A stretch of DNA of 64,000 bases from an uncultured Dehalococcoidia bacterium (GCA_951813255.1 OX638353.1:2155472-2219471); one strand, 5' to 3'; positions 23,897-39,475 are shown, counted from the stretch's first letter. The notes: generated by a model from the letters alone, not told the origin. Made by a program: numbers and translations.

Positions 23897-24183
23897 CCAA
23901 GGCCTCTGAGCGTAGAGGCGTGGGAAGTTCATGCACTGCCCGGCCGTAATGGCGCCGCCGGAGAGTAGGCGGGCCGCCATACTGGCCATGCAATTCCAAG
24001 GCATGCCTCTAGCTGAGGGGCGTGCAATGGCGTGGGACTGTCGAGCCGAGTTGCAGGGCCACGGTTCGTCGGCTAGGGCCGGGGCGGAAGTCCGTAGACC
24101 TCTCCCTCGCTGTAGCTCAGCTTAGTACTCAGGCCGGGGGTACCAAGAGACATGCGATGGGTTAGAGACTCCGCCCATCGCGG

Positions 24184-25989: not shown

Positions 25990-26392
25990 GGCTATGTCCG
26001 GACCTCCACCCTTCCTAGCGGTGCCCTTGGCCTACCAAAATACTGGTCACATTTGCGCCCATGCAGATGCAACGTCGAGATGTAAGCGAGGGACGGAGCC
26101 CCGCTTGTTCAAGAATTATGAGGTCAATCCCAATAAATCGAAAGACCTTCGAGTTAACGGCCAAGTCGTCCGCCCGTGATACTGCGAGAGTCCTGCTACA
26201 TATCTTCCGTGGTCCATCCTGCCCGAGGAGAGCTCCAGTGCTACTCGAAGTCTGGGAAGACAACTCGGCGGACGAAGCCCACAACGTCCGGAACACGAAG
26301 CATCCTGAAGCCTCTTGCCATCACCATTCTGGCGCGCATGTCATCTCAGGGAGTGGTGCTCATTGAACGGACTACCGAATGAGAGGGGGATG

Positions 26393-26467
26393 TGGAGCCG
26401 GCGAGGGGATTCGAACCCTTGACCTGCGGTTTACGAAACCGCTGCTCTGCCACTGAGCTACGCCGGC
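26393..26467 (-). tRNA. tRNA-Thr (anticodon CGU)
   Basis: The reverse complement is GCCGGCGTAGCTCAGTGGCAGAGCAGCGGTTTCGTAAACCGCAGGTCAAGGGTTCGAATCCCCTCGCCGGCTCCA. It has a 7-bp acceptor stem, anticodon loop TTCGTAA, a TTCGAAT T-loop and encoded CCA. One A-C mismatch sits in the T stem. Confidence 0.85.
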
Positions 26468-26472
26468 AGTCC

Positions 26473-26507
26473 TATAATTATAGAGAGGCCAGCCTTGGGT
26501 TAGCAAA
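26473..26507 (-). promoter_or_regulatory. Putative sigma70-like promoter for tRNA-Thr. On the minus strand: -35 TTGCTA, ~18-nt spacer, -10 TATAAT about 9 nt before the mature 5' end.
   Basis: Reverse complement of 26470-26510 reads ...gTTTGCTAacccaaggctggcctctcTATAATtataggact|GCCGGCG. Confidence 0.4.
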
Positions 26508-26618
26508 CGCATAGCCCGCCCCGCTGGAATTCGCGTCGGGCTACCAACAACGTGCAGCTTGTCCTAAACTACCGTCAAACCACGGTGACCAATTCAACCC
26601 GGCGACGGAGGTGCCCGA

Positions 26619-27479
26619 TTGGCGCTACAGCAGGTGACCAGCAATGTGTTCACGGATATAACGTGCAGGGGGTGTAATTTCGGGTTTCTGACGACCTCGG
26701 ATGGCATCGTTATGTTCGATAGCCCCCACAAGCCCAGCGATGCCATGGCACTCAAGGCGGAGTTGGCGCGCCGGGGAGAGTTGCGCTACATCATCAATAC
26801 CGAGCCCCATGGGGACCACTGGACGGGCAACTCCTTCTTCGATGTGCCAGTGATCGCCCATGAGGGAGTGCGACGGCGCATCCTGGAGACTGACCTTGAA
26901 CAGCATGTGCAGCGGACAGCCTCCTTTGGCCCCGACGAGCCCCAGTACATGGAAGGCTACCAGTTCAACGCTCCTGCCATCACCTTCGAGAACGGCATGA
27001 CCCTGAGGGTCGGCGACCACACCATCCAGATCATCCACATGCCCGGGCACACCGCCTACCAAGCGGCCATCTGCATCAAGGAAGAGGGCGTGGTGTGGAC
27101 CAGCGACAACGTTTTCAACAAGGTGCAGAGCTTCCTCCAGGAATGCAGTCCTGACCAGTGGCTAACTGCGGTGGAGTCGCTCCGTCGCTTGGACGAGGAG
27201 ATATTCGTTCCGGGTCACGGCGAAATTTGCGGCAAGGAATACCTGGACGAGCAGGGCTCTTATATCCAGGAATGGAAGGACTACGTGTGGAATGCTGTGG
27301 AGCGGGGCATGAGCAAGGAGGATGCCATCTACAGCCTGACCAACCTGACGGAGCGGTATCCCATGGAAGCAGCCCACCAAGATGCAGCGGCTGTCATGCG
27401 GATGAACGTGGCTAACCTGCACGACTACCTCACGGGAAACTGGGTGCCATCGAACCCCCAAGCCCCTCCGGCCCGGTAG
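26619..27479 (+). CDS. MBL-fold metallo-hydrolase
   Basis: EPHGDHW (HxHxDH) zinc-binding motif, 286 aa. Confidence 0.75.
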   Translation: MALQQVTSNVFTDITCRGCNFGFLTTSDGIVMFDSPHKPSDAMALKAELARRGELRYIINTEPHGDHWTGNSFFDVPVIAHEGVRRRILETDLEQHVQRTASFGPDEPQYMEGYQFNAPAITFENGMTLRVGDHTIQIIHMPGHTAYQAAICIKEEGVVWTSDNVFNKVQSFLQECSPDQWLTAVESLRRLDEEIFVPGHGEICGKEYLDEQGSYIQEWKDYVWNAVERGMSKEDAIYSLTNLTERYPMEAAHQDAAAVMRMNVANLHDYLTGNWVPSNPQAPPAR

Positions 27480-27555
27480 GGGCTACGCTCCCTGTGCCAG
27501 TAGACGGGAGATGGATGCGAGTTTAGCTTTCCCATCCATCTCCCGTCTCTTCATC

Positions 27556-28656
27556 CTACAGGTTGTACAACGCTTTCGGATTGTGGCAGAGAATGCGCTC
27601 CCGGGTGGCCTCGTCGATGCCGTCCATGCCCCTGAAGATGGAGATGGCATCGATCTCGCTGGACGGGTCGGTGTGGCCGTAGTCGGTGCCGATGACGATG
27701 GAGTTGGGGCCAGCGTATTTCAGCACATACGGGATGTCGTCGTCGGTCTGGCAGGTGACGTATATCTGCCGCTCCCCGAACATGTCCTCGGGCTGAGCCA
27801 TACCCCGGGCTTCGTAGCGACGGGCCACCTCGTGGTGTATCCATGGCACCCACTGGGCCGAGGCCTCGATGATCCCCCACCGCAGCTTGGGGAAGAGCTT
27901 GGGCGCCTCGCCCATCAGCAGGGCGTAGGTCGCAACAATCGTAGGCACCCGGAAGAGGGCGAAGGCCATCGTGTTGAAGCCCTCAGGGAACCCGCGCAGC
28001 AGTTGGACATTGGTTGGATTGGCATTGGCGATGTGCACGGCCACGGCCATGTTGAGGTTGGTGGCCTCCTCGTACACTGGGTAGAAGTAGGGGTCGGTCA
28101 GCGAGCGGTCGCCTTCGAGGGGACGCATGCAAACGGCCACTGAGCCGTTCTCTTTGGCGAAGCGCATCTGGTTCACGGCCTCGTCGAGGGACAGGGTGGG
28201 TATCACGCAGGACCAGTTCAGACGCCCGTTCGACTGCCGGTAGACATCGGCCAGCCACTTGTTCCAAGACCGGCAGAGAGCGGCCTCGCAATCGGGGTCC
28301 TGCGTTACCTGCTCAATCCACATCGTGTTGTGCAGCACTTGCACGTCGATGCCCAGTTGGTCCATGTGGTGGAGGCGCAGCGATACGTCGTCGAGTTCGC
28401 GAGCGGCCTTGGGGGTGGACATGTCCCGGTTGGCCTTGCGCGATAGCTCCTCCAGTTGCTCCTCGCTCAGGTCGGCGAAGCGAAAGCCAGCAGTTGCTCC
28501 GTGGATGGCCCACATCTGGCGCTCCGCGTCATAGGGGTTGGGCAGCAGCACGGGGCGGAACTTCTCCTCCGCGGGTTCCAGATAGTCCCAGGTGCGCTCG
28601 GTCTCGATGACATGAGCATCAGCGTCGATAACCTGTAGCTTGGTCTGGGTCGCCAT
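27556..28656 (-). CDS. Amidohydrolase-2 family protein (ACMSD-like metal-dependent hydrolase/decarboxylase)
   Basis: N-terminal IDADAHVIE metal-binding motif, 366 aa TIM-barrel size. Confidence 0.65.
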   Translation of the reverse strand: MATQTKLQVIDADAHVIETERTWDYLEPAEEKFRPVLLPNPYDAERQMWAIHGATAGFRFADLSEEQLEELSRKANRDMSTPKAARELDDVSLRLHHMDQLGIDVQVLHNTMWIEQVTQDPDCEAALCRSWNKWLADVYRQSNGRLNWSCVIPTLSLDEAVNQMRFAKENGSVAVCMRPLEGDRSLTDPYFYPVYEEATNLNMAVAVHIANANPTNVQLLRGFPEGFNTMAFALFRVPTIVATYALLMGEAPKLFPKLRWGIIEASAQWVPWIHHEVARRYEARGMAQPEDMFGERQIYVTCQTDDDIPYVLKYAGPNSIVIGTDYGHTDPSSEIDAISIFRGMDGIDEATRERILCHNPKALYNL

Positions 28657-28865
28657 TAAGCACCTCCTACCGGTTCTTGAGTAGAAGACCCTGTCTTAAG
28701 GGGCATTCTAGCAGGGGGGCAGGTTGGTGCAAAGCAACGGCCTCCAAGGATCGATCCGGGCCTTGGTCAAGCCCTTTCGCCAGCCGCTATAACCAGCCGC
28801 TATAATCAGTAACGCCATCCCAGTTGTCGTAACCGAGCACGTCCCCAAGCAACTTGTACTAGCTT

Positions 28866-29930
28866 ATGCACGAAGAAACGGCACACCAAAACCTGCCCCA
28901 GCCCCGCATATCCAGACAGCGAGCAGGAGGGCTCCGTGCCCTGCTGCTCGCGCTCAGCATCCTGACCCTCTTCGCCCTCTCCTTGACATGCGGCACATCC
29001 CCCGACGTAACCCCCAGCCCAACCCCCACCCTACTCCCTCTGCCTACTTCCGCAGCCACTTCCGAGCCACCCCCGCTCACGCCCACGCCAACCGTACCGG
29101 AGCCACCACCAGCCCCATCCTTACCCGCAACAATACAACCAGTAGCCACACCCGCGCCGGAGCCACCACCTGCTACCCCCACACCCACGACGGAACCACC
29201 TCCAGCTACCCACGCGCCCACGCCGGAACCACCACCAACCACGCCCGAACCTACACCAGAGACGCCACCAGCCACGCCCGAACCTACACCAGAGACGCCA
29301 CCAGCCACCCCCGAACCTACACCAGAGCCGCCACTAGCCACGCCCGAACCCACACCGGAGCCGCCACCAACTACGCCCGAACCCACACCGGAGCCGCCAC
29401 CCGCTACCCCCGAACCTACGCCAGAGCCGCCACCCGCTACCCCCGAACCCACACCCACCCCCGAAGTCGGCACCAGCATCGGCAACCTAGCCCCAGACTT
29501 CCAGCTACCCTCCGCCCAAGGCTCCAACCACTTCCTGGCATCCTATCGCGGCGAGAAAAACCTGGTCCTGGTGTTCTACCGCGCCTTCTGGTGAACATAC
29601 TGCCGCAGGCAGCTGGATCAGCTGTCAAATAACTACGACGACATCACAGCCCTCGACGCCGAAATACTCGCCATCAGCGTCGACGACCTCAGCGGCGCCA
29701 CCGACATCGCCGACAGGGTAGGCATCCCCTTCCCCGTCCTCTACGACCCCGAAGGCACCGTCCCCAAGGCCTACATGGTCTACGGCCTCCTCGAACCCAA
29801 CCGCGCCGCCCCCTCCACCTTCATCCTCGACAAAAACGGCATCATCACCTGGAAATACATAGGCGCCACCATCTCCGACCGCACAGGCCCCTACAGCATC
29901 ACCCGCGAACTCCAAGCCATCCAAACCTAG
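28866..29930 (+). CDS. Putative selenoprotein: membrane-anchored Prx-like/AhpC-TSA-family thiol-disulfide oxidoreductase with an in-frame TGA (29592..29594) at the first position of the CxxC redox motif (FYRAFW-U-TYC).
   Basis: The 28866..29594 ORF has a signal/anchor (RISRQRAGGLRALLLALSILTLFALSLTCG) and ~190 aa of Pro/Thr/Glu repeats (TPEPTPEPPPA, about 8 copies). It ends at TGA exactly where the Prx_like/Bcp consensus (VLVFYRGxWCPxC) has the redox Cys. The same frame then runs without a start codon for 111 further codons encoding the rest of the thioredoxin fold (TYCRRQLDQL...ILAISVDD...GIPFPVLYDPEG...AYMVYG...STFILDKNGII) to TAG at 29928..29930. Hairpin-capable sequence lies just 3' of the TGA (GCCGCAGGCAGCUGGAUCAGCUGUC). 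Confidence 0.6.
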
Positions 29931-30204
29931 CATCTCCAGCACCCCCACTGCCCGCCTAGCCGCCGCCATAGGAGCCTTTGTCCCAAACTAACCACTTGCT
30001 ACAGCCGTCCATGGATTCCGCCTTCCACAGTTCGACGCAAGGTACCGTTACATTCCTTACGGTGTGCTAGGGTAAACTATCTTTGCATGATGTCATTTGA
30101 CAGCTATTGACATATACTACTGTACTGTACTAACCTGCCCCTGTAGCAATCGCGCAATCACCGGGAGGGGCCCTTTGGCAGACTCCGGCGACCCCGAAGC
30201 TCTG

Positions 30205-30645
30205 ATGTCGTTGCACGATGTGGCCCAATACCTGGCCATGACCGACCGCACCATCTACGACTGGGCCCAGACCGGCCGCATCCCCGCCTTCAAGCTGGGC
30301 GCCACCTGGCGCTTCCGCCGCTCCGAAATCGACGCTTGGCTCCAGAGCCAGCGCTCCGGCCCCGAAGTGTCCCCAGCCAAGCGTCAACCCTCGCAACCGC
30401 TGATACCCCGCACCGACCCCGAACCCACCCGGCGGCAACGGGTCGCTGCCTGCAAGGCAGAGATAGAGACGGCGATATCGGACTCCACGCGAACTACCTT
30501 CCTGATCAGCCAGTTCGAGGATGAGTTCGGCACGAACGTGGTGAGCGAGGCCCTTGAGGAACTGCGCAAGGAAAAGCGAATCACCGTCACCCACATCAAA
30601 GGCCGCGACGGCCTCAGAAATCGAGTCATACGAAGAAGGAGTTGA
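30205..30645 (+). CDS. Helix-turn-helix DNA-binding protein (excisionase/MerR-like HTH_17) with a ~90-aa C-terminal extension
   Basis: MSLHDVAQYLAMTDRTIYDWAQTGRIPAFKLGATWRFRRSEIDAWL matches the excisionase-family HTH. The ORF track extends to 30097, but the domain begins at the 30205 ATG. Confidence 0.6.
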   Translation: MSLHDVAQYLAMTDRTIYDWAQTGRIPAFKLGATWRFRRSEIDAWLQSQRSGPEVSPAKRQPSQPLIPRTDPEPTRRQRVAACKAEIETAISDSTRTTFLISQFEDEFGTNVVSEALEELRKEKRITVTHIKGRDGLRNRVIRRRS

Positions 30646-30648
30646 ACC

Positions 30649-31191
30649 ATGGGCATACTGGGATTCGGCAGAGCCAACAAGCTGGAAGACCTCAAGATCG
30701 ACGACCTTCGCCGCGAACGGGTGGTGCAGGAGGTCGAGCAGGACAACTCTCTCAGGGCCATCCGTCGCGCCCAGCAGGAATACGACCGGCGCCTCCAGTT
30801 GGCCTCTGAGCCAGGTGTATCCGACGCCGAGAAGGACGTAGCTGCCTACCGCATGAAGATAGCCCGGAAGACCAAGGCCAAGTCCGAGACTGACCTGCAG
30901 CAGACCATCACCCGCATGACGGTCCTGGACTCTGCCATCGACGTCATCCACTTGAAGCGCGACCTCCAGAAGAACGGCGTCTGGAAGCGCATCAACGACC
31001 TCGACCCCGAAACCCTCGAAAGGCAACTCAAGGACATCGCCGTCAAGACCAAGGGCTCCAACAACAAGCTAAAGACCATCGTCGACATCCTCGAGAAGGA
31101 TGAGGCCGACGTAGCCTATGAACGAGGCCCGGAATACGACGAGGCCCGGGCAGAAATTGAGCGCATGGCGCAGGAGAAGAGCGGCTGGTAG
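30649..31191 (+). CDS. Coiled-coil protein (180 aa). Possibly PspA/IM30/ESCRT-III-like, but fold unverified.
   Basis: ATG 8 nt after GAAGGAG, 3 nt after the HTH-gene stop. The N-terminus MGILGFGR is reminiscent of the PspA MGIFSRF start. Highly charged heptad-like sequence throughout. Confidence 0.45.
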   Translation: MGILGFGRANKLEDLKIDDLRRERVVQEVEQDNSLRAIRRAQQEYDRRLQLASEPGVSDAEKDVAAYRMKIARKTKAKSETDLQQTITRMTVLDSAIDVIHLKRDLQKNGVWKRINDLDPETLERQLKDIAVKTKGSNNKLKTIVDILEKDEADVAYERGPEYDEARAEIERMAQEKSGW

Positions 31192-31295
31192 TGCCGCGGT
31201 GATGGGTAGCGCACCGACAGCGAGTAGGCCTTCGCTTTCCTGTCTAGCAACGGGTGATGGGCACTTTCGTGCTCTGTCGGCAATGGGAGGTCAAT

Positions 31296-32705
31296 GTGCC
31301 CAAACGCAGGCGCAAGGGTCTATCAGTCATGGAGACAATGGCGGCATTGCTACTCCTGTTGCTGGCTTGGTTCATTGAGCATCCGTGGATTTCGTGGTCG
31401 CTTATGGGCTTCGCATCTGTCCTCGTGCTCATAGGCGCTTGGCGAAAACTCCACACGGACAGGCGCATCACCTCGTCCTTAGGGACATCACCTGCTAACG
31501 ACTCAAACCGAGCGACGCATGCTCCTAGCCCGAACGAGGCGCAAGAACTGGGGGTTTGCGTAAAGGAGGGCGCTTTGACAGACCATGACTCCCTGCTGTG
31601 GCCTGTAACCCCAAGATGGGGACACGTGACTGCCGAACCAAGTCAAGTCGGAATAGTGATGCGCAACGGCAGCTTGCACTCCCGCTGGCATGGGGGTAGG
31701 AAAGCAGTTCCCGTAACGGGTGAGATAAGAACCTACCTTGTGTCTACCAGGCCATTCGACATCCGCTTCAGTGTTTCGGATGCGACACCAGGCCCACAGT
31801 CTGCGCAAGCCATGTTGGAGGGGACAACCAGTGACCACTCGCCGATACACGGATCCGTGGAGGTGAGGCTACAGGTTAATGAGGAAGTCGCCGATTGGCT
31901 GTTGAACATAGGAGGCCAGGTAACTACGACCGACGTAGCACGCCATATCAGACTGGATGTGGCTACGGCCGTAGCGGCGGTTGGGTCTGAACATGCCGCA
32001 TCTGAATTCAGAGGTTATAGCCAAGACATCTCCGAATCGATTAGTGAGGAACTCGAGAAAGCTCTCAAGAGGCACGGCCTGGGGGTAGTGCGACTCTATG
32101 CTAATCTATCGGCTGGAACGCCCACCCTCGACTCAGGTCCCACGAACACCAAAACGGTGTCCACGGATTCCCCACCCCAACCTACCGTGCCAAACACTGA
32201 ACGAGCTTGGATTGTGCGAGGCAAGGCTGGTGGAAAATACTGGGTTGTCGACCAGTTTGTGGACAAGGAGGTCGTCTCGATCGGTTGGCCGGCGATGGGA
32301 GACTTATCGAGGTTCAGCGCCAAGGGAGAACTGAGAAGCGCGCTTAAGAGATTCCACCCTGAGTCGGGAGATGGAACGGTCAATATCCTTTGGGGCTTCT
32401 GCCGGGAAATCTGCGTCGGGGATGTGATTGTAACTCCGGCTCCGAACCCTCTTTCGGCGAAGCCTAGAACGAAGCCGTCGCAGATCGTGATTTGGCGCTG
32501 TATTGGCCCTTACGAGTATAACCCAGGGGTCATAGAGTGCAGCAAATACCCGTTTGCAAGCATCCGGAAAGTAGAGAGGGTGGCTATCGTCAGCGTGTCG
32601 AGGCTCTCACAGAAGCTCCAAGACCGCCTGCAACTACCACCCACAGTGTCCCCAATCAAGCAGCAAGAGTATGTACAGGAACTGGAGTCGGCGATCAAGA
32701 GCTAG
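31296..32705 (+). CDS. SPFH/Band-7 (stomatin/flotillin-like) paralog 1. N-terminal hairpin membrane anchor, SPFH domain, and a C-terminal domain resembling the N-terminal domain of many Mrr-type restriction endonucleases (RAWIVRGKAGGKYWVVDQFVDKEVVSIGWPAMGDLS).
   Basis: GTG start 5 nt after GGGAGG. Basic N-terminus KRRRK then two TM helices. The SPFH core (LLWPVTPRWGHVTAEPSQVGIVMRNG...RTYLVSTRPFDIRF...GSVEVRLQV...GLGVVRLYANLS) aligns with the two downstream paralogs and with HflK/stomatin SPFH motifs. Confidence 0.7.
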   Translation: MPKRRRKGLSVMETMAALLLLLLAWFIEHPWISWSLMGFASVLVLIGAWRKLHTDRRITSSLGTSPANDSNRATHAPSPNEAQELGVCVKEGALTDHDSLLWPVTPRWGHVTAEPSQVGIVMRNGSLHSRWHGGRKAVPVTGEIRTYLVSTRPFDIRFSVSDATPGPQSAQAMLEGTTSDHSPIHGSVEVRLQVNEEVADWLLNIGGQVTTTDVARHIRLDVATAVAAVGSEHAASEFRGYSQDISESISEELEKALKRHGLGVVRLYANLSAGTPTLDSGPTNTKTVSTDSPPQPTVPNTERAWIVRGKAGGKYWVVDQFVDKEVVSIGWPAMGDLSRFSAKGELRSALKRFHPESGDGTVNILWGFCREICVGDVIVTPAPNPLSAKPRTKPSQIVIWRCIGPYEYNPGVIECSKYPFASIRKVERVAIVSVSRLSQKLQDRLQLPPTVSPIKQQEYVQELESAIKS

Positions 32706-32738
32706 AGCGATATCAGGCGAGACCAAGAGAGGGCTCCA

Positions 32739-35252
32739 TTGAGCGAAGAACACCGCGACGACCTAGTATTAGCACCCGGCGAACCCCGCCGGGGCAACCT
32801 CATCATCTACCCCTACCATGTGGGCATCGTCATATGCAACGGAAAAGTGGAAGGCGTCTTCCCCGAAGGTACCAGACGCCTTCCTAGGGGCGATGTGCGT
32901 ACCTATGTGGCCTCCACCGCTCCCTTCAACCTCACCTTCTGGCTCCAAGACCCCGGCGACCCCTCCGAGCCGGGTGAGGGGATGGCATTGGACCAACCCG
33001 TCCTCACTGCCGACGGCCAACTCGTCACCGGCCGCATCGATCTCACACTCTCAGTAGTCCCCGACAACGCAGAACACCTGCTGCAACTCCTTAGCCCCGG
33101 CGGCGCCATCACACGACGCCATGTCGCCGACTCCATCAAGAGCGAACTGCTCGCCAAGGTCCTCGCCCTCGACCTTCACACCCACACCGCAGGCACCCTG
33201 CGCGGAAACCGCGACCTCTTCCAAGGTATCTATGCCTCCCTCGAAATCGAACTCGCATCCACCATCTCCCGCTACGGCCTCAAGCTCGACAACTTCTACG
33301 TCAACTGGGGCCTCATTCCCGAAGAGCGCGAGCGCATCAAGGAAGAACGCCACCAGAGCGTCATCCGCGACATCGAACGCGAGTCCGAGCTTGAGCGTCT
33401 GGGCGGTCGAAGGCCCGGCGGTCCGGGCGGCGGTGGCTCCTCAGTCGGCAGGTCCGGCGGAGCCCCAGGCGGCTGGTTCAACCTTCCACGAGGCATCGGA
33501 GTCCTAGCCCTCATCCTTTTCGCGGCCTTGATTGCAACCCTGTTGGCAGTCGACCCCGCCGGCTGGTTCGACGACTCGCCCGATGCAACGCCAGTCGCTG
33601 CTGCCACTCCCCAGCCCGCTCCAACGTCTGACCGCCCGCCGGCCCCCGCGCCCGCTCCCACCACTGAAGACATTCAGGCAGCAGTCGCCGCCGCCATAGC
33701 CCAACTGCCCCAACCCTCAGCCGGGCCATCCATGGACGAGGTGGCCGCCCTCGTCTCCGCATCCGTTGCGGAGGCGTCCGGCAATAACGCCTCCCCTGAG
33801 GAGATACAAGGCCTCGTGGCCGATACCATCGCCAAAGCCATGGCCAGCCAGCCCCAACCCGAATCCGGCCCCACCCGCGACGAAATCGCAGCCATCATCG
33901 CCGAGGCCATCCCCACTTCCGCCTCCAGCGAGGGCCCCTCTCCGGCAGAGATTCAAGCCATGATTCAGCAGGCCATCGCCTCCCTCCCCCAACCAACCCA
34001 AGCTGAAGCCGGTCCAACCTCCGAGGAAATCGACGCCCAAATTCAGGCAGCCCTCTCCTCCCTCCAACCCGGCATGACCCCGGAACAAGTGCAGGCCGCC
34101 GTGCAACAGGCCGTTACGGCCTCCATCGCATCCATGCCCACGCCGACTCCAGCCCCAACTCCCGCTGCCGCACCGCCTCCCGCAAGCTCGGCCACTCCCG
34201 CGCCCACAGCTACCCCTACTGCCGCGCCCACCGTCCAAGCAACGCCTACCCCCACTCCAGCAACCGAACCACGCGAAGCAGAACTCGTGTGGAGCTACGA
34301 CACGGAATCCGAGGTGTGGTCCTCTCCCGCCGTGTCGGAAGAGTGGGACGTCTTATATGTGGGCGCAAGCCATGGTTACTTGTACGCTTTGGATACGGTG
34401 ACGGGCCAGCTGCTGTGGCGGTACGGACCAGGAGCAACAACTTCCTGGCGATCATGGCCAGTTGTGGTGGGGAAGACAGTGTACACAGGAGGAAATGAGT
34501 ATTACGGCACCGATTTACTAGCCGTAGAAGCAGGGGAACAGCGGTGGGATGTTCGGTCGTGCTACATTTGTGTTGCACCCATTTTCTCCGCTGGGAGCAT
34601 CTACGTGGGCAGCTCGGGGTCGTTATATGCTCTTGACGCGGCCACTGGTGCACAACATTGGTACTACCGTACAGCGGTGAGAGAAGGTTCCATTCGGACA
34701 CGGCCGTCCGTAGTTGACAAGATGGTCTACTTCGGGGCTGATGACAAGCGCATATATGCTCTGACCACGAAAAAGGGCGAATTGATTTGGAGCTACGCCA
34801 CCAATGCCGCAGTCCGCTCTTCTCCTACCGTCGCTGACGGCATCGTGTATGCTGGCTCCAACGACGACCACCTGTACGCGGTGAACGCGGAGGCGGGCGA
34901 GTTCATCTGGCGGTACCGAACGGGCGGAGACGTCATTTCCTCTCCCGCAGTCGCAAACGGCATCGTCTACGTAGGTTCCAATGACGGCAGCCTGTACGCC
35001 CTCGACGCCACAACGGGCACGTTAGCCTGGAGCTACGAGACAGGCGGTGCGGTGGTGTCCTCACCTGCAGTGTCCGACGGGGTCGTGTATGTGGGGTCAT
35101 ACGACGGGTTCCTGTACGCCCTTGACGCCGCCACCGGATCACTGGTCTGGAGTTATGAGACCGAAGACAAAGTAGCGTCCTCGCCAGCCGTATCGGGCGA
35201 TAACGTGTACGTGGGGTCGGTGGATGGGCATGTGTACGCCTTCCGGAAGTGA
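32739..35252 (+). CDS. SPFH/Band-7 paralog 2 (837 aa). Domain order: SPFH domain, Gly-rich linker, single TM helix, seven ~23-aa amphipathic repeats (PS.EEIQA.I..AIA..PQP), a Pro/Thr/Ala linker, and a C-terminal PQQ-like/BamB-like beta-propeller.
   Basis: TTG start after AGAGAGG. SPFH motifs VLTADGQLVTGRIDLTLSVVPDNAEHLL and GLKLDNFYVNWG. TM helix GIGVLALILFAALIATLLAV. About 8 repeats of (V/I)Y(V/A)GSxDGxLYALDAxTGxxxW typical of the PQQ beta-propeller fold. Confidence 0.75.
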   Translation: MSEEHRDDLVLAPGEPRRGNLIIYPYHVGIVICNGKVEGVFPEGTRRLPRGDVRTYVASTAPFNLTFWLQDPGDPSEPGEGMALDQPVLTADGQLVTGRIDLTLSVVPDNAEHLLQLLSPGGAITRRHVADSIKSELLAKVLALDLHTHTAGTLRGNRDLFQGIYASLEIELASTISRYGLKLDNFYVNWGLIPEERERIKEERHQSVIRDIERESELERLGGRRPGGPGGGGSSVGRSGGAPGGWFNLPRGIGVLALILFAALIATLLAVDPAGWFDDSPDATPVAAATPQPAPTSDRPPAPAPAPTTEDIQAAVAAAIAQLPQPSAGPSMDEVAALVSASVAEASGNNASPEEIQGLVADTIAKAMASQPQPESGPTRDEIAAIIAEAIPTSASSEGPSPAEIQAMIQQAIASLPQPTQAEAGPTSEEIDAQIQAALSSLQPGMTPEQVQAAVQQAVTASIASMPTPTPAPTPAAAPPPASSATPAPTATPTAAPTVQATPTPTPATEPREAELVWSYDTESEVWSSPAVSEEWDVLYVGASHGYLYALDTVTGQLLWRYGPGATTSWRSWPVVVGKTVYTGGNEYYGTDLLAVEAGEQRWDVRSCYICVAPIFSAGSIYVGSSGSLYALDAATGAQHWYYRTAVREGSIRTRPSVVDKMVYFGADDKRIYALTTKKGELIWSYATNAAVRSSPTVADGIVYAGSNDDHLYAVNAEAGEFIWRYRTGGDVISSPAVANGIVYVGSNDGSLYALDATTGTLAWSYETGGAVVSSPAVSDGVVYVGSYDGFLYALDAATGSLVWSYETEDKVASSPAVSGDNVYVGSVDGHVYAFRK

Positions 35253-35308
35253 TCGGCAGTGGGCCGCGCCTATATTCCTTGCATGGAGGTTCTGACTTGA
35301 GGAATCCT

Positions 35309-36265
35309 ATGCCTGCCGACAGTGTATTGTGGCCCGCAAAACCCAAGCGTGGCTGGCTGACGGCCGACGTTCATCAAGTGGCTGTCGTCATGTGGGATGG
35401 TACCGTGGACGATGTCTTTTGGGCTGACCGGAAGAAGATGCGCGATGGCCGGGGTCCCTTCTATCTTGCCTCCACTGCCCCGTTTGAAGTCGCGTACAGC
35501 TTGAAGGCTTCTTCCCCTGGGGAAGAGTCGAGCGGGAGTCCGACATTGGACCAGTCAGTCTATACATCCGACGCGCAACCTGTGATGGGCCAGCTTACAG
35601 TCGGCTTGTCCTTGGCCCCCGAAAGGGTCGAACGTCTGCTCCCGTTGCGTGGCCGAGGACAATGCGTTACCAGTTGGGATATCGCCTTGGCCATCAAGAA
35701 TGACTGTGCAACAGCAGTAGCAGATGTAGTCGCTCAACATACCGCCAGTGACCTTCAAGGCAAGAGGCAAGCTATCCGGGAATCAATCCGAAACCAATTG
35801 GCTGCACCAGCAGCTCGCTTTGGCTTGCAGTGTGGGAGTGTTTACCCAAATCTTTCGGTCATTACATGCTCAACGCCACCGGTCATTACACGCCCAAAGC
35901 CACCAGTCATCACGCGCCCAACGCCACCAGTCATCACGCGCCCAACGCCACCAGTCATCACACGCCCAACGCCACCGCAGAGCGCCAAATGCCAAACCTT
36001 CTCACGTGCGCATACCCCTCAGGCCGAAGAGCGCTTTCAAGCGTGGATGCGAGCGAATCCCACAGGCTACGTCTTCAATCACTTCAGAGGCAGCAATCCC
36101 GGCTATAATCTGCTCCATCAACTGCCCTGTCCCAGCTTTCAGCGTCAGGCTACCACAGCAGTCCAAAAGTTCTGCTGCACCGACCGCGCCTGCATCGAAC
36201 GCACCATCCGCGAACTCCGAGGCGAATCCTGGCAATTGTGCGGCAACGGCTGCTGTCCGGGGTAG
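35309..36265 (+). CDS. SPFH/Band-7 paralog 3. SPFH domain, five tandem PPVITRPT octapeptide repeats, and a C-terminal 7-Cys domain.
   Basis: ATG 5 nt after GAGGA. N-terminus LWPAKPKRGWLTADVHQVAVVMWDG aligns with paralogs 1 and 2. SPFH end motif GLQCGSVYPNLS. The C-terminus is CQTFS...CPSF...FCCTDRAC...LCGNGCCPG. Confidence 0.7.
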   Translation: MPADSVLWPAKPKRGWLTADVHQVAVVMWDGTVDDVFWADRKKMRDGRGPFYLASTAPFEVAYSLKASSPGEESSGSPTLDQSVYTSDAQPVMGQLTVGLSLAPERVERLLPLRGRGQCVTSWDIALAIKNDCATAVADVVAQHTASDLQGKRQAIRESIRNQLAAPAARFGLQCGSVYPNLSVITCSTPPVITRPKPPVITRPTPPVITRPTPPVITRPTPPQSAKCQTFSRAHTPQAEERFQAWMRANPTGYVFNHFRGSNPGYNLLHQLPCPSFQRQATTAVQKFCCTDRACIERTIRELRGESWQLCGNGCCPG

Positions 36266-36315
36266 CAGCATAGGTCAGCATGGAACAGGACCGAAAGCCG
36301 CCTCACGCTGGGAAC

Positions 36316-36651
36316 TTATTCATTCACCAAGACGTCAATGGTAGTGCCGAGAGCACTCGCTATGCGGGCCAAGGCAGAGGTGGAGCCGGGTTTTCGGCCA
36401 CGCTCAATCTCGGAGATGTAACCTGTCGCGATGCCGGTCTTCTGGGACAGTTCCCTCAGGGTCATGCCTTGGTGGTCCCGAAACGCAACGATGGGCCTCT
36501 TTCCCCGCATGATTTCCAGTGCGACCTCGTGGGGAACGCGCGCACCGTCATCAGCGTCGCGGGCAGCCAGCATATCCTCAAGTTGGCTGTTGCGCTCAAC
36601 AAGCGCGTCGTACTCTACTCGAGACAAGGTTATGGTCTCTTCTCTAGTCAT
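36316..36651 (-). CDS. XRE-family HTH transcriptional regulator (Cro/C1-type), convergent with the SPFH genes
   Basis: C-terminal HTH MTLRELSQKTGIATGYISEIERGRKP. The start is most likely the ATG at 36651, preceded by TAGGAGAGAAG. The ORF-track start at 36705 is also possible. Confidence 0.7.
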   Translation of the reverse strand: MTREETITLSRVEYDALVERNSQLEDMLAARDADDGARVPHEVALEIMRGKRPIVAFRDHQGMTLRELSQKTGIATGYISEIERGRKPGSTSALARIASALGTTIDVLVNE

Positions 36652-36821
36652 AGGCTTCTCTCCTATGCCGGGGCTTCCCCCCCATGACAAAAACCACTTG
36701 CGCACCCCTCCTCCACTAGTCCATCATCAAACCATAGCCAAGCCACGCGCCATCAATCTAAGGCAGGAACCGAAACACCATGAGGACCAAATGGACACCC
36801 GAACAGCCAATTCCACCAGCC

Positions 36822-37140
36822 CCCGTCATTCCCGTACACCAGCCGTCATTCCTGCGCCCCAACCCGTCATTCCTGCGCAGGCAGGAATCCACGCGCCCCG
36901 AATCCACTGCTCCAACCCCTCCAACGACCCCGCCACCAAAAATGTCACACTGTGACACTCTGGTCAGCTACGAAAATGTCACAAATGTCACATTTCCCAA
37001 AATCTGTGACATTTTTCGTATCTGAAAAATGTCACACCCTTTCCGTATCTGGCCAGCTAGCAAAATGTCACAAATGACACACTTTTCAGCTACAAAAAAC
37101 AAATTTTAGCTACGATCGGTGTGACATTGTGACATTTCCG
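36822..37140. repeat. Composite repeat region upstream of the XRE gene: three degenerate copies of the palindromic REP-like unit (CGTCATTCC[CT]G...), then an AT-rich array of about 9 TGTCACA/TGTGACA palindromic sites with CAGCTACGAAAA motifs.
   Basis: 36865..36897 is CGTCATTCCTGCGCAGGCAGGAATCCACGCGCC. 36939..37135 contains AAAATGTCACA x6 plus TGTGACA x3. GC is much lower here than in the flanks. Confidence 0.8.
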
Positions 37141-37159
37141 GCCCGTCCAGGAGGCCCTG

Positions 37160-39475
37160 CTACCCCTCCACCGGCTCAAACGCCGTGATCGGCGGTGCCT
37201 CCCCCTCATACCGCTCCACCTGCACCAGCACCGTCTGCGCCGTCGGCGACTGCGCCAGCCTGCTCGTCCCCTTATCCCGCGTCAGCACATTCGGGTTCCC
37301 ATGCTTGTCCATGCTCTTCGGCTCCCCCGGATCAACCGGGTCATACCACGCCCCCGTCGAAAGCTGCACCACCCCGGTCCGCACCTCATCCGTAACATAA
37401 GCCCCCGCCAGGCAAGTCCCACGGTCATTGAACAACCTCACCACATCCCCATTCCCAATCCCCCGGTCCGCAGCATCCTTCGGGTTCATCCACACCGGCT
37501 CCCGGCCCGCCACCTTCCGGGCCTGGCTCAACGCCCCATTGTCCAACTGGCTATGCAGCCGGTACCGCGGCTGGTTCGAAATCATATGCAGTGGATACCT
37601 CTCCGCCAACTCCGACCCCAGCCACTCCGCCGGCTCCATCCAGGTCGGATGCCCCGGACAATCGTCATACCCGAACCCGTCAATCGTCTCCGAGAACAAC
37701 TCAATCTTCCCCGAAGGCGTCCGCAACGGACTATTCACCGGGTCATCCCGGAAAGCCTTCATAAAAATCTGGGGCGTCTCCGGCCCCGGAAACTCCACAT
37801 GCCCGATCTCCCAGAAGCGGTCGAAGTCCGGCACCTCCATGCCCTGCTCACCCGCCCGCTGCGCCGCCTGAGCATAGATATACCGCAGCCACTCCATCTC
37901 ATCCCGCCCCTCGGTATACTCCTCCCGGAAACCCAGCCTCCCAGCCAAATCAGCAAATATGTCGTACTCCGACCGCGCCTCACCCATCGGCTCAATCGCC
38001 TGCTGCATCGCAAACCAGAACCGGTCATAGGTCGAAGCCCCAATATCATTCCGCTCCATCGTCGTCGTGCACGGCAGCACAATATCAGCCCGCCGCGCAG
38101 CCGCCGTCCACCAAGGCTCGTTCACCACCACCGTGTCCGGCTTCTGCCAAGCCCGCAGCATCATGTTGATGTCCTGCTGCTTATGGAAGGGATTACCCCC
38201 AGCCCAGTAGAGCAGGTGAATGTCCGGGTACTCCATCCGTCGCCCGTTGAAGTCATACTCCTGCCGCGGGTTCAGCAACATCTCGCTGACACGCGACACC
38301 GGGATGAAAGCCTCCACATCACTCGCTCCCTTGGGCAGGGACGGCGGTGCCACCCGGGGACTCGGATTCCCGAACCCCCCACTGGAACCATACCCGAATC
38401 CAAATCCCCCACCCGGCAACCCCACCTGCCCCAGCATCGACGACAGCGCCACCGCAGCCCAGAAAGGCTGCTCGCCATGGTCGGCACGCTGCACCGACCA
38501 AGTCACGTTCATCAAACTCCGCGTCGATGCCATCCTCCGCGCCAACCCGCTGATCGTCCCAGCATCCACCTCGGTAATCTCACTCGCCCACTCCGGCGTC
38601 TTCACCACCCCGTCCGTCTCACCCATCACATAAGCCCTGACCCGCTCAAACCCCACGCAGTACTCACTCAGAAAAGCTTCGTCATGCAGGTTCTCGCTGA
38701 TAAGCGTATGCATCATCCCCAGCATGAAGGCCACATCCGTATTGGGCCTCAGCGGTATCCACTCCGCGTTGATATCCTTCGCCATATCATCCCGTATCGG
38801 GCTGATGCAAACGAACTCCATGCCCTTGTCCTGCGCCAGCGTCTGCCAGTCCCCTTGGTCGTGACTCCCCAAGCCATCCTTGGTCACTTGGGCATTCTTC
38901 GGCGACAACCCGCCAAACACCACCATCAGTTTCGTGTTCTCAGCAATCACCGGCCACGAAGTGCCAGGCCCGGTAACCGGCTCCAAGCTCCCGATCACCC
39001 GCGGCAGGATCACGCTGGCAGCCCCAAAGGAGTAGTTGGTCACATAGCCCACACGCCCGCCAAAGCTATTGAAGAACCGGGTGAGCTGCCCCTCAGAGCT
39101 GTGAAAAGCACCCGCGCTCCCCCACCCGGACGGCGCATAAAACGCCTCATTTCCATAGGTATCCTTAACCCTCTGCAACTCAGCAGCCAGCAAATCAAGC
39201 GCCTGCTCCCACGACACCTGCACCATAGGCTCCACTCCCCGCTTCGAGGTGTCGCTCCGATGCCCCTGCTCCAGCCAACCCCGCCGCACCATGGGATGCG
39301 CAATCCGTGCTTTGGAGTGCACCGCGCTCGGCACCGCATCAGCCAGAGGACTCGGACGTGCATCGCGCTCGAAGGGCCGTGTACCCACCACCTTTCCATC
39401 CTCCACCTCAACATCAAAGATGCCCCAGTGGTTGCCAGTGTGGTAACGCTTCGGTTCAGTGGTGGTCATGTTCAT
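37160..39475 (-). CDS. Molybdopterin-dependent oxidoreductase, DMSO-reductase family (BisC/TorZ-like S-/N-oxide reductase)
   Basis: 771 aa. N-terminal TGNHWGIFDVEVEDGKVV is BisC-like. Length and periodic Gly/Pro-rich MGD-binding segments match the family. Confidence 0.75.
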   Translation of the reverse strand: MNMTTTEPKRYHTGNHWGIFDVEVEDGKVVGTRPFERDARPSPLADAVPSAVHSKARIAHPMVRRGWLEQGHRSDTSKRGVEPMVQVSWEQALDLLAAELQRVKDTYGNEAFYAPSGWGSAGAFHSSEGQLTRFFNSFGGRVGYVTNYSFGAASVILPRVIGSLEPVTGPGTSWPVIAENTKLMVVFGGLSPKNAQVTKDGLGSHDQGDWQTLAQDKGMEFVCISPIRDDMAKDINAEWIPLRPNTDVAFMLGMMHTLISENLHDEAFLSEYCVGFERVRAYVMGETDGVVKTPEWASEITEVDAGTISGLARRMASTRSLMNVTWSVQRADHGEQPFWAAVALSSMLGQVGLPGGGFGFGYGSSGGFGNPSPRVAPPSLPKGASDVEAFIPVSRVSEMLLNPRQEYDFNGRRMEYPDIHLLYWAGGNPFHKQQDINMMLRAWQKPDTVVVNEPWWTAAARRADIVLPCTTTMERNDIGASTYDRFWFAMQQAIEPMGEARSEYDIFADLAGRLGFREEYTEGRDEMEWLRYIYAQAAQRAGEQGMEVPDFDRFWEIGHVEFPGPETPQIFMKAFRDDPVNSPLRTPSGKIELFSETIDGFGYDDCPGHPTWMEPAEWLGSELAERYPLHMISNQPRYRLHSQLDNGALSQARKVAGREPVWMNPKDAADRGIGNGDVVRLFNDRGTCLAGAYVTDEVRTGVVQLSTGAWYDPVDPGEPKSMDKHGNPNVLTRDKGTSRLAQSPTAQTVLVQVERYEGEAPPITAFEPVEG

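Follow-up and report, generated by a model that had tools for sequence, protein, structure and literature searches.

Gene content of the locus

The DNA analysed in this study, hereafter called the window, is a stretch of 64,000 nucleotides from an uncultured Dehalococcoidia bacterium (GCA_951813255.1 OX638353.1:2155472-2219471). ORF calling placed five successive genes on the plus strand, designated A (30206-30645), B (30649-31191), C (31254/31296-32705), D (32739-35252) and E (35249/35309-36265), with a convergent gene F on the minus strand (ORF 36316-36705, gene 36316..36651), and every feature that a first-pass annotation had described here was present in the sequence, with its coordinates unchanged. 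The ORF of A opens at 30097, and its probable start is the ATG at 30206. Within 29600-37300, the sole sigma-70-like site was the promoter/operator upstream of A (30088..30135, plus strand), which contains a -10-like element and three TGACAT-type boxes, namely ATGTCA at 30090, TTGACA at 30097 and TTGACAT at 30107; ATGTCA-N12-TGACAT spans 30090-30113.

Gene A (30206..30645) encodes an HTH_17/excisionase-type DNA-binding protein (Pfam HTH_17, 1.1e-15), whose matches to TIGR01764 (3.7e-13) and to excisionase PHROGs assign it to the excisionase/MerR family. Its conserved C-terminal domain may be a winged helix. The HTH matched PADLOC mad1 at the domain level (1.5e-7), and the NCBIfam MAD1 model gave 1e-20 and 73.7 bits, under the cutoff of 80. 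The identification of A as MAD1 of the methylation-associated defence system (MADS) was rejected owing to this score and to the lack of other MADS components in the cluster.

Gene B (30649..31191) encodes a 180-aa all-helical protein with a conserved, hydrophobic MGILGFG motif at the N-terminus. The AF2 model (pLDDT 85) shows a long hairpin of helices 17-52 and 59-101, together with short helices. The B family comprised 77 clusters and 96 representatives in the two large libraries, and B itself had no match in Pfam, NCBIfam or PADLOC. The earlier label "PspA-like" is favoured by context alone, since B did not match PspA_IM30/Snf7 in Pfam even at E values up to 10, and profile searches against the PDB gave nothing significant (CdvB2, E 3.8). 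Distant B-like proteins likewise carried no PspA or Snf7 domain.

By sequence, C, D and E belong to the SPFH/Band-7 superfamily at the domain level. Pairwise BLASTP of the SPFH domains gave identities of 32% for C versus D (E 1e-17), 35% for E versus D (E 2e-25) and 38% for E versus C (E 6e-29). The Pfam Band_7 profile (PF01145; gathering score 23.6 bits) was reached by C (31.7 bits, E 2e-7) and E (23.6 bits), whereas D scored slightly under the cutoff (21.9 bits) and is linked to C and E through its BLASTP homology. PF01145 matches are precomputed for many members of this SPFH family, and a family-profile search found no solved structure related to it by sequence. The view of C, D and E as three divergent SPFH paralogs with unrelated output modules was borne out by BLASTP, Pfam and module analysis. 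Candidate membrane segments also differ among them, with an N-terminal hydrophobic hairpin in C and a TM helix after the SPFH domain in D, which has a helix of about 30 aa as well; E has neither.

In gene C (31296..32705), the Kyte-Doolittle hydropathy profile revealed the hydrophobic hairpin (31317-31442), with basic residues on its two sides, followed by the SPFH domain (31587-32111) and an Mrr/PDC-S02-type reader domain (32199-32702). The C-terminus matched the N-terminal domain of PDC-S02 in PADLOC (1.5e-11), and PDC-S02 itself consists of an N-terminal reader domain and Mrr_cat (1.8e-87). The reader domain of C is about 30% identical to the domain found at the N-terminus of Mrr_cat proteins and of McrB-like proteins. 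Its first description as "Mrr-N-like" was right in substance, as it corresponds to the N-terminal domain of PDC-S02/Mrr_cat enzymes, but it is not Pfam Mrr_N. C was rejected as a Type IV restriction enzyme (Mrr/McrBC) because it has the reader domain alone, without the Mrr_cat nuclease or the AAA_5 GTPase, which are present in the plasmid homologues.

Gene D (32739..35252), analysed by Pfam, BLASTP, NCBIfam and hydropathy, encodes a predicted cytoplasmic SPFH domain (32760-33317) followed by a short helix, a TM helix (aa 246-277; 33474-33569), about seven short Ala/Pro-rich helical repeats (about 33650-34150) and a predicted extracytoplasmic PQQ/BamB-type beta-propeller (about 34280-35249; E 5e-67). 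Positive residues before the TM helix and acidic residues after it provide the topology cue. The best models for the propeller were of the non-enzymatic BamB/ACSF4/AfsK type, and a PQQ-dependent dehydrogenase was rejected (108.7 bits versus the TIGR03075 cutoff of 480).

Gene E (35309..36265) encodes a soluble SPFH domain (35318-35866; Band_7), PPVITRPx octapeptide repeats (35858-35976; 24-bp x 5.0 tandem repeat) and a His/Cys-rich domain with 7 Cys (35978-36262), which structure prediction depicts as alpha/beta and as no simple ribbon. The identical database protein P0001 begins 4 codons upstream of the E start, at about 35297.

Conserved core and exchangeable accessories in relatives

The conserved unit consists of A, B and a D-type SPFH-TM-beta-propeller protein; it was found only in Dehalococcoidia MAGs and deep-ocean metagenomes, and the cluster is one case of a rare gene system confined to the Dehalococcoidia lineage. 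This core triad occurs in independent lineages (L001, L005, L006, L010, L011, L093, L094, L134 and L135); it also appears as A-B-SPFH-TM-PQQ in L012-14 and as A-B-kinase-SPFH-TM-PD40 propeller in L015/17. A orthologues lie directly upstream of B in many loci, and both A and an SPFH gene were present beside 11 of 32 fully flanked metagenomic B genes. The recurrence of A-B-SPFH in many independent loci agrees with the earlier proposal linking the upstream HTH_17 and coiled-coil genes to the SPFH genes. The three paralogs do not form a fixed trio; only the D type is constant, and close relatives differ in how many other paralogs they have and in which modules these bear.

C and E are accessory genes that are exchanged among close relatives. 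D orthologues share 79-93% identity in L093 and 64-88% in L094. In the syntenic locus L094, the cluster lies between the same housekeeping genes as in the window, and accessory genes turn over rapidly at this chromosomal site. The D architecture recurs in L012, the version in L015 has an added kinase, L078 has a PP2C variant, and copy number varies up to three loci per genome. One paralog in L093 combines an Mrr/PDC-S02-type reader domain, as in C, with the His/Cys (Zn) module, and a paralog in L094 has DUF4268/PDC-S11 in place of the PDC-S02-type domain. DUF4268 mostly occurs with GmrSD Type IV enzymes (PMC4619093). The His/Cys module is family-specific and is found in relatives on HEPN_Swt1 RNases, as in L002, or as a stand-alone gene, with near-identical copies within one locus. 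The L135 cluster also includes a HEPN_Swt1 gene, and L135 has an NfeD/SDH-protease gene, the classical SPFH partner.

Among the neighbouring genes of relatives are serine recombinases, PIN/SocA/UPF0175 TA genes, an Eco57I-type RM, transposases and a DpdJ/Lhr-like helicase. In L001 and L093, large serine recombinases are located no more than a few kb away; L001 additionally has Replic_Relax, SNF2 and YhcG genes, and L012/L013 are flanked by transposases. The neighbours in the window are housekeeping genes and form no defence island, and no recombinase was found in the window or in L094. A-B-SPFH was absent from phage, plasmid and IMG/VR collections. A search of PADLOC-DB v2 gave no system-level match (none for B, D and E, and domain-level matches only for A and C), and no published description of an A-B-SPFH system was found.

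Concerning the regulatory elements, the 10 bp-spaced boxes upstream of A are kept across the family; at least two TGACAT boxes were present in 20 of 35 distinct A-upstream regions compared with 1.8% of background windows, confirming the upstream repeat as a conserved cis element. The first-pass annotation further proposed that the XRE regulator and a TGTCACA array form a second regulatory boundary, so that two operator arrays bracket the system. F is indeed an XRE/HTH_3 regulator (HTH_3 4e-11; phrog_7241 2e-21) that is convergent with E and separated from it by 50 bp. The array is a nested palindrome, about 200 bp long (36938..37137, unstranded), with 9 AAATGTCACA-type boxes and 19-bp terminal inverted repeats, and the core ATGTCA is common to it and to the boxes upstream of A. 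It is also strongly non-random, as 9 of the 13 exact TGTCACA sites in the window lie within 36943-37134; chance alone predicts about 7 such sites across all 64 kb. On both strands, its folding is much better than that of shuffled sequences (z -7.5 and -8.5). However, about 90 related loci, including the syntenic L094, contained neither an F homologue nor the array. A membrane protein stands in the F position in L094, and 672 kb of related loci contained no similar box cluster. The XRE start is also about 290-490 bp from the array, and the nested palindrome, the terminal inverted repeats and the equal folding on both strands are typical of a MITE/REP-like insertion. We regard this second boundary as highly improbable; F and the palindromic element are both specific to this window, and both probably belong outside the system.

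Comparison with known systems

In B. subtilis pspA-ydjGHI (samGHI), the SPFH protein YdjI/SamI is encoded beside the helical membrane-associated PspA, which is comparable to the SPFH genes and B here, and YdjI/SamI is a soluble SPFH protein with a C-terminal Cys-rich/zinc module, as in E. A role of this gene set at the inner membrane face is reported (PMC8581546; PMC11237479; bioRxiv 10.64898/2026.02.06.704340). The present cluster differs in its HTH_17 regulator, in its constant SPFH member, a putative single-pass receptor with an outer beta-propeller, and in having several SPFH paralogs with DNA-reader modules. Its assignment as a PspA-SPFH module was rejected, since B has no detectable PspA homology, YdjG/YdjH-type recruiters are lacking and Band_7_1 (YdjI-type) matches reached only E 0.07-0.13.

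B also occurs in a second context without A and SPFH, which differs from the arrangement in the window and comprises B, two polytopic membrane proteins, a helical protein, a HisKA_3 kinase and a NarL-type regulator. This context resembles Lia (liaIH-liaGFSR) of Firmicutes, although no component matched PspA_IM30. Based on this resemblance, and with the B. subtilis SPFH-PspA link as a precedent (PMC8581546), B may be a membrane-stress-type protein.

The adjacent paralogs are reminiscent of HflK/HflC, flotillin-1/2 and prohibitin-1/2, which are pairs of membrane-attached SPFH paralogs. Such pairs co-assemble into hetero-oligomeric cages, and the flotillin 44-mer offers a precedent for co-assembly of SPFH paralogs. 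In contrast to these pairs, the cluster has no FtsH-type client, the TM helix of D follows the SPFH domain rather than preceding it, and neither C nor E has a long C-terminal coiled coil like the one closing known cages; co-assembly here is hypothetical.

The last 168 residues of C are homologous to the non-catalytic N-terminal domain of Mrr_cat enzymes (Mrr/PDC-S02) and to that of a McrB-like AAA_5 ATPase; the DUF4268 of GmrSD (PDC-S11) is carried by the relative L094 and not by C. Type IV restriction enzymes possess a nuclease/NTPase domain, whereas C has neither and joins its reader to a membrane-anchored SPFH domain.

Zorya and Kiwa are membrane-embedded anti-phage systems that sense envelope events. 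The common idea is an envelope-monitoring membrane complex coupled to cytoplasmic nucleic-acid-directed modules, but the components are of other kinds, without sequence relationship, and no PADLOC system model was matched. The His/Cys module resembles the EADs of NTP-dependent conflict systems (Kaur et al. 2020, PMC7159879) as a small recurring module distributed over core proteins, HEPN_Swt1 effectors and stand-alone genes; it is unrelated in sequence to the described EADs, and the cluster has no STAND/NTPase core.

Possible roles of the cluster

The cluster may constitute a novel device for sensing or defence that is anchored in the membrane. From the genes of these uncultured hosts we infer, tentatively and with somewhat less than even confidence, a membrane-anchored surveillance system of the conflict (anti-virus or anti-mobile-element) type. 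The conflict or defence flavour suggested at first pass appears plausible in view of the Type IV-restriction reader domains, the HEPN_Swt1 partners and the RM and TA neighbours in relatives. In the proposed mechanism, A would bind the 10-bp-spaced TGACAT boxes overlapping its own promoter and set the expression of an A-B-C-D-E operon. D could be the receptor, detecting a cell-surface change through its outer propeller and oligomerising beneath the membrane through its SPFH domain. C, through its membrane hairpin, and the soluble E may join the D SPFH assembly or form assemblies of their own; their co-assembly with D is speculative, since neither has the short coiled-coil found after the SPFH domain of D-type members. 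The DNA-reader domain and the His/Cys adaptor would thereby be held at the inner membrane face, the entry point of foreign DNA, and B might be recruited to the membrane for PspA/ESCRT-III-type protection or remodelling, or as an effector.

Several points stand against the conflict reading: the housekeeping neighbours in the window, the lack of any obvious enzymatic effector in the cluster (no HEPN, no nuclease), the kinase and PP2C variants, which suit generic envelope signalling equally, and the score of D on its own under the Pfam Band_7 cutoff. A more specific form, which we consider rather unlikely, is that A-B-SPFH represents a new, membrane-anchored class of immune system organised on an SPFH platform. 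An outward propeller receptor and inward domains that read foreign (modified) DNA would be held where genomes enter the cell, with the shared His/Cys adaptor coupling them to exchangeable effectors (HEPN RNases or the membrane-acting B).

The main rival, which we consider rather unlikely, is a housekeeping module for envelope stress or membrane maintenance, an analogue of Psp/Lia or pspA-ydjGHI with no role in virus or mobile-element conflict; D would sense damage, SPFH would scaffold microdomains, B would stabilise the membrane and the variable modules would tether clients. This would accord with the membrane proteins and LiaSR-type two-component system adjoining B in its second context, the known SPFH-PspA partnership in B. 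subtilis (PMC8581546; PMC11237479), the NfeD/SDH-protease gene in L135, the housekeeping neighbours in the window and the vertical inheritance of the locus at a syntenic position. However, it leaves unexplained the repeated fusion of SPFH paralogs to Type IV restriction reader domains, the HEPN_Swt1 partners with a common Zn module, the rapid shuffling of modules and variation in copy number, and the frequent recombinase, TA and RM neighbours in relatives. These recombinases, the L001 genes and the transposases around L012/L013, together with the excisionase/MerR family of A, would also suit the cargo of an integrative mobile element, serving that element through excision control by A and superinfection or membrane entry exclusion rather than the host. 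We consider such cargo improbable, because the window and L094 have no recombinase and share the flanking housekeeping genes, the phage, plasmid and IMG/VR collections lack A-B-SPFH, and A invariably accompanies B and SPFH, not an integrase.

SPFH proteins occur universally as membrane scaffolds; what they do in bacteria is still poorly defined, and to our knowledge the well-studied SPFH operon partners are only NfeD, FtsH and, recently, PspA. In the loci described here, a regulator and a helical protein of an uncharacterised family have an SPFH subfamily as their constant partner, whose members are repeatedly joined to sensor domains from modification-dependent restriction enzymes and have links to HEPN RNases. 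Should the conflict reading hold, the catalogue of prokaryotic immune systems would gain an SPFH-based, envelope-anchored type, from a marine, uncultured host lineage (Dehalococcoidia/SAR202-like) with almost unexplored defences. Should the stress reading hold instead, the cluster would represent a module akin to Psp whose extracellular sensor is defined. Under either reading, protein B, the His/Cys module and the PDC-S02 reader domain constitute three testable new domains.

Three SPFH paralogs with different output modules

This analysis supports the earlier proposal that three consecutive genes, here called C, D and E, encode a common SPFH domain. Pairwise BLASTP comparison of the domains gave 32% identity for C and D (E = 1e-17), 35% for E and D (E = 2e-25), and 38% for E and C (E = 6e-29), and 39 columns are invariant in the three-way alignment. 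The Pfam Band_7 profile scored C at 31.7 bits, above the gathering score, E at 23.6 bits, equal to it, and D at 21.9 bits, slightly under it, and precomputed PF01145 matches were present on many homologues of the three proteins. Based on these data, the SPFH assignment holds at the level of sequence comparison. A profile of these domains matched just 38 clusters among 5.8 billion proteins, and the genome matches came exclusively from Dehalococcoidia MAGs, with at most three loci per genome.

According to the ORF listing, the plus strand carries A, encoding an HTH_17 regulator (30097 or 30206 to 30645), B, encoding a helical hairpin protein (30649-31191), C (31254 or 31296 to 32705), D (32739-35252), and E (35249 or 35309 to 36265), to which the XRE regulator gene F (36316-36705) is convergent. 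Short spacings, as expected for an operon, separate A from B (3 nt) and C from D (33 nt), and D and E overlap or lie about 50 nt apart, according to the start chosen for E. The sole sigma-70-like promoter match within 29600-37300 is at 30090-30118.

The claim that each paralog carries a different C-terminal module was also borne out: a reader domain in C, a TM helix with repeats and a propeller in D, and octapeptide repeats with a Cys domain in E. In D, a short helix and a Gly-rich linker connect the cytoplasmic SPFH domain to a single TM helix (aa 246-277), which has Arg residues ahead of it and Asp residues behind it; the protein continues with about seven helical repeats rich in Ala and Pro and then a PQQ/BamB/AfsK-type propeller. 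The propeller matched Beta-prop_ACSF4 (5e-67) and PQQ_2 (1.6e-48), and scored far under the cutoffs of the PQQ-enzyme families. E is soluble, its SPFH domain being followed by tandem repeats (24 bp x 5.0, PPVITRPx) and a Cys-rich domain. The latter aligned with the most frequent C-terminal module of its SPFH subfamily; all members have the first Cys, one Ala, and the C-x2-C, and most also have the His of H-x3-C.

C consists of a hydrophobic hairpin flanked on both sides by basic residues, the SPFH domain, and a 168-aa C-terminal domain that matched the first ~140 positions of PADLOC PDC-S02 (1.5e-11). Homologues of this last domain were recovered via tblastn against plasmids and via the PADLOC models, and a search of the 5.8-billion-protein library yielded none. 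It shares ~30% identity with the N-terminal domains of Mrr_cat endonucleases from Proteus and Haloarcula plasmids, the Proteus enzyme being a full-length PDC-S02 (1.8e-87), and also with the domain ahead of AAA_5 in an McrB-like ATPase. Based on these matches, which agree with the earlier label "Mrr-N-like" in covering the N-terminal part of PDC-S02/Mrr_cat enzymes, C carries the non-catalytic domain of a Type IV-like restriction enzyme but no nuclease, and this domain presumably reads DNA.

The conserved core and protein B

The linkage of the upstream HTH and helical genes to an SPFH gene recurs across many related loci from other genomes and metagenomes. The order A-B-SPFH was found in L001, L005, L006, L010, and L011, and, with varying accessories, in L093, L094, L134, and L135. 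In L012-14, the third gene encodes a 976-aa SPFH-TM-PQQ propeller protein, and in the Tara Oceans loci L015/L017, a 1706-aa Ser/Thr kinase-SPFH-TM-PD40/Tricorn propeller protein. Where both flanks of a metagenomic B gene were available (32 genes), A and SPFH lie beside B in 11, A alone in 6, and SPFH alone in 2; another 11 have neither, with a Lia-like membrane/kinase context in their place, and the remaining 2 show neither context. Based on this recurrence and the flank census, the core is A, B, and a cytoplasmic SPFH domain joined via a TM segment to an extracytoplasmic propeller.

Two deep-ocean loci (L043 10548-17295 and L040 1122-5123), likewise among those in which an SPFH gene comes after A-B, encode an SPFH-TM protein and large extracellular PD40-like propeller proteins in separate genes, both with a juxtamembrane 'TEIHGDxxNTT' and TM helix as a common anchor, which suggests a split form of the D architecture united via homologous anchors.

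The second context of B, observed at L069 10001-15142 and also in L050, L055, L064, L067, and L086, is without A or SPFH. It runs from B through two polytopic membrane proteins, a 353-aa helical protein with no Pfam match, and a HisKA_3 kinase to a NarL/GerE regulator, an arrangement resembling Lia. B is the element common to two membrane-signalling contexts. Separately, L078 122-10658 contains two B paralogs within one locus, the second in the order A-B-PP2C phosphatase followed by a TM protein of at least 2479 aa (subtilase, FN3, PPC, NHL-propeller); an SPFH domain was not detected in this locus.

Concerning the two upstream genes, A is an excisionase-type HTH_17 protein whose HTH is MAD1-like but under the cutoff, and its conserved C-terminal second domain may be a winged helix. 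B matched no family of Pfam, NCBIfam, PHROGs, or PADLOC. In its AF2 model (pLDDT 85), a short N-terminal element precedes a long hairpin of two helices (17-52 and 59-101), and there are five shorter helices besides; searches gave 77 clusters in the 5.8-billion-protein library and 96 representatives at E <= 1e-3 among 1.84 billion. Sequence comparison spoke against the first-pass description of B as PspA-like: sequence methods detected no relationship to PspA, and the best match of a broader 56-sequence profile, to CdvB2, was collinear and non-significant (E 3.8). A PspA-like role is supported by the context, namely the SPFH partner and the Lia-like neighbourhood, and by the hydrophobic, nearly invariant N-terminus MGILGFG. 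The pairing of B with an SPFH protein is comparable with that in B. subtilis, in which the SPFH protein YdjI partners PspA (PMC8581546; PMC11237479).

Two further database proteins contain B-related sequence. In P0191 (278 aa), an SPFH domain is linked to the final ~48 residues of B, which may reflect either a true fusion or a chimeric assembly. One among 37 distant B-like proteins gave a weak match to the effector-associated domain EAD9 (E 7e-4); the search output gives no member name, and the match is attributed to P0203 (433 aa), which has an N-terminal extension of ~100 aa ahead of its B-like region. An origin of B or the SPFH domain in phages, plasmids, or IMG/VR viruses was rejected, since those collections gave no match to either.

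Variable accessories and flanking segments

L094 is syntenic with the window, with which it shares the flanking genes on the PPDK side and the 771-aa molybdopterin oxidoreductase. Its order is A, B, a 74-aa stand-alone Zn module, SPFH+DUF4268, a 280-aa protein ending in an E-type Cys domain, D, a 97-aa E-type Cys domain, and a second 280-aa protein. The DUF4268 corresponds to PADLOC PDC-S11 (4e-22), and DUF4268 mostly accompanies GmrSD Type IV enzymes (PMC4619093). The N-terminal domain of the 280-aa proteins was considered as HEPN and rejected: Rx4H is similarly placed, but Pfam gave no match and the hhalign probability was 0.5%.

In the closest relative, L093 (B 88% identical, D SPFH domain 93%), the order is A-B-D followed by a gene joining SPFH, a PDC-S02-type reader, and a Zn module, with a serine recombinase and a SocA gene close by. 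L135 contains A-B-SPFH-TM, small genes, a HEPN_Swt1 protein, and an NfeD-type protease, bounded by an Eco57I-type RM gene and a methylase-HNH gene. In L134, an inserted UPF0175/DUF3368 TA pair separates B from SPFH-Zn, and a DpdJ/Lhr-like helicase adjoins. In L002, three cassettes follow an SPFH-Zn gene, and their HEPN_Swt1 proteins end in 30 residues identical to those of the SPFH-Zn protein. Each of these tandem cassettes (L002 10994-13413) is a remnant of a D-type 3' end, with the last PQQ blades, plus a HEPN_Swt1-Zn gene, which looks like duplication driven by recombination. Comparison of these accessories shows a reshuffling of the reader and adaptor modules, which occur on SPFH paralogs, on RNases, and as stand-alone genes, a pattern typical of conflict systems and comparable with the behaviour of EADs (PMC7159879).

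The region from PPDK to the Mo-oxidoreductase is a variable spot in the lineage, since a 6.3-kb segment of the window (~23890-30190) has no counterpart in L094. It contains a RecN/SMC_N-like gene, a metallo-beta-lactamase-fold gene, an amidohydrolase, a redoxin, and a tRNA-Thr(CGT) (26393-26467). The lipoprotein-like AhpC/TSA redoxin gene (28866-29930, plus strand), with a Pro/Thr-rich repeat of 33 bp x 9.3 (29146-29452), probably encodes a selenoprotein instead of being a pseudogene: an in-frame TGA (29592-29594) would give FW-U-TYC, a UxxC motif where the catalytic Cys is expected, and with TGA read as Cys, the downstream part matched AhpC-TSA across the stop (3.6e-24). An 8-bp hairpin begins ~16 nt after this UGA, and its fold is no better than shuffles.

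Regulatory elements and interpretation of the cluster

Two or three TGACAT boxes, direct or inverted, lie upstream of A in nearly every lineage; their spacing is mostly 10 bp, and a -10-like hexamer comes after them. At least two exact boxes were found in 20 of 35 distinct 200-bp A-upstream regions, compared with 1.8% of windows drawn at random from the same loci, which supports the upstream inverted repeat as part of a conserved cis element; this repeat belongs to the TGACAT element, one box of which is also the -35 (TTGACA).

The downstream TGTCACA array (36938-37137) fared differently. The cluster is real, containing 9 of the window's 13 TGTCACA sites, and forms a nested palindrome of ~200 bp with AAATGTCACA boxes and 19-bp terminal inverted repeats. 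Its role as a conserved operator was rejected, since no similar cluster occurs in L094 or any related locus; scanning viral contigs with an 18-mer produced 39 dispersed matches, judged uninformative. Neither the segment that contains the array nor F has a counterpart in L094, and F, earlier taken to bracket the system, was rejected as a component because no related locus has a homologue, nor have the viral contigs searched. As the array is window-specific, lies in this segment, and is a nested palindrome with equally good folding of either strand (z -7.5 and -8.5), we regard it as a MITE/REP-like insertion, the XRE gene's own operator field, or iteron-like, outside the SPFH system. The earlier model of two operator arrays plus XRE is accordingly very improbable; the array has the ATGTCA core of the upstream boxes, which would leave a small chance of binding by A. 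Nearby, 36822-36890 is a REP-like palindromic repeat, CCGTCATTCC(T/C)G(C/T)(G/A)C three times and then the complementary GCGCAGGCAGGAATCC, which yields spurious '...VIPAQAGIH...' type ORFs.

Our tentative reading is a conflict-type surveillance system anchored in the membrane, the functional side of which we infer throughout. In such a system, A would autoregulate, with binding of the TGACAT boxes by A, as we infer; D would be a receptor-scaffold; C and E would bring a DNA reader and an adaptor, respectively, to the inner face of the membrane; and B would act on the membrane, as a partner or an effector. The chief alternative is an envelope-stress module with a purely physiological role; it accounts well for B and D, but leaves the Type IV reader domains, the HEPN partners, and the module turnover unexplained, and we consider it rather unlikely. 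Against a mobile-element function stands the chromosomal position, which is syntenic and has no recombinase; this reading appears improbable, more so than the envelope-stress module.

Full-text literature searches gave no published description of an A-B-SPFH system, SPFH-restriction-reader fusions, or protein B. The parts of the A-B-SPFH system relate to known kinds, namely SPFH scaffolds, Psp-like partners, Type IV reader domains, and EAD-like adaptors; what is new is their combination, together with two of the domains.
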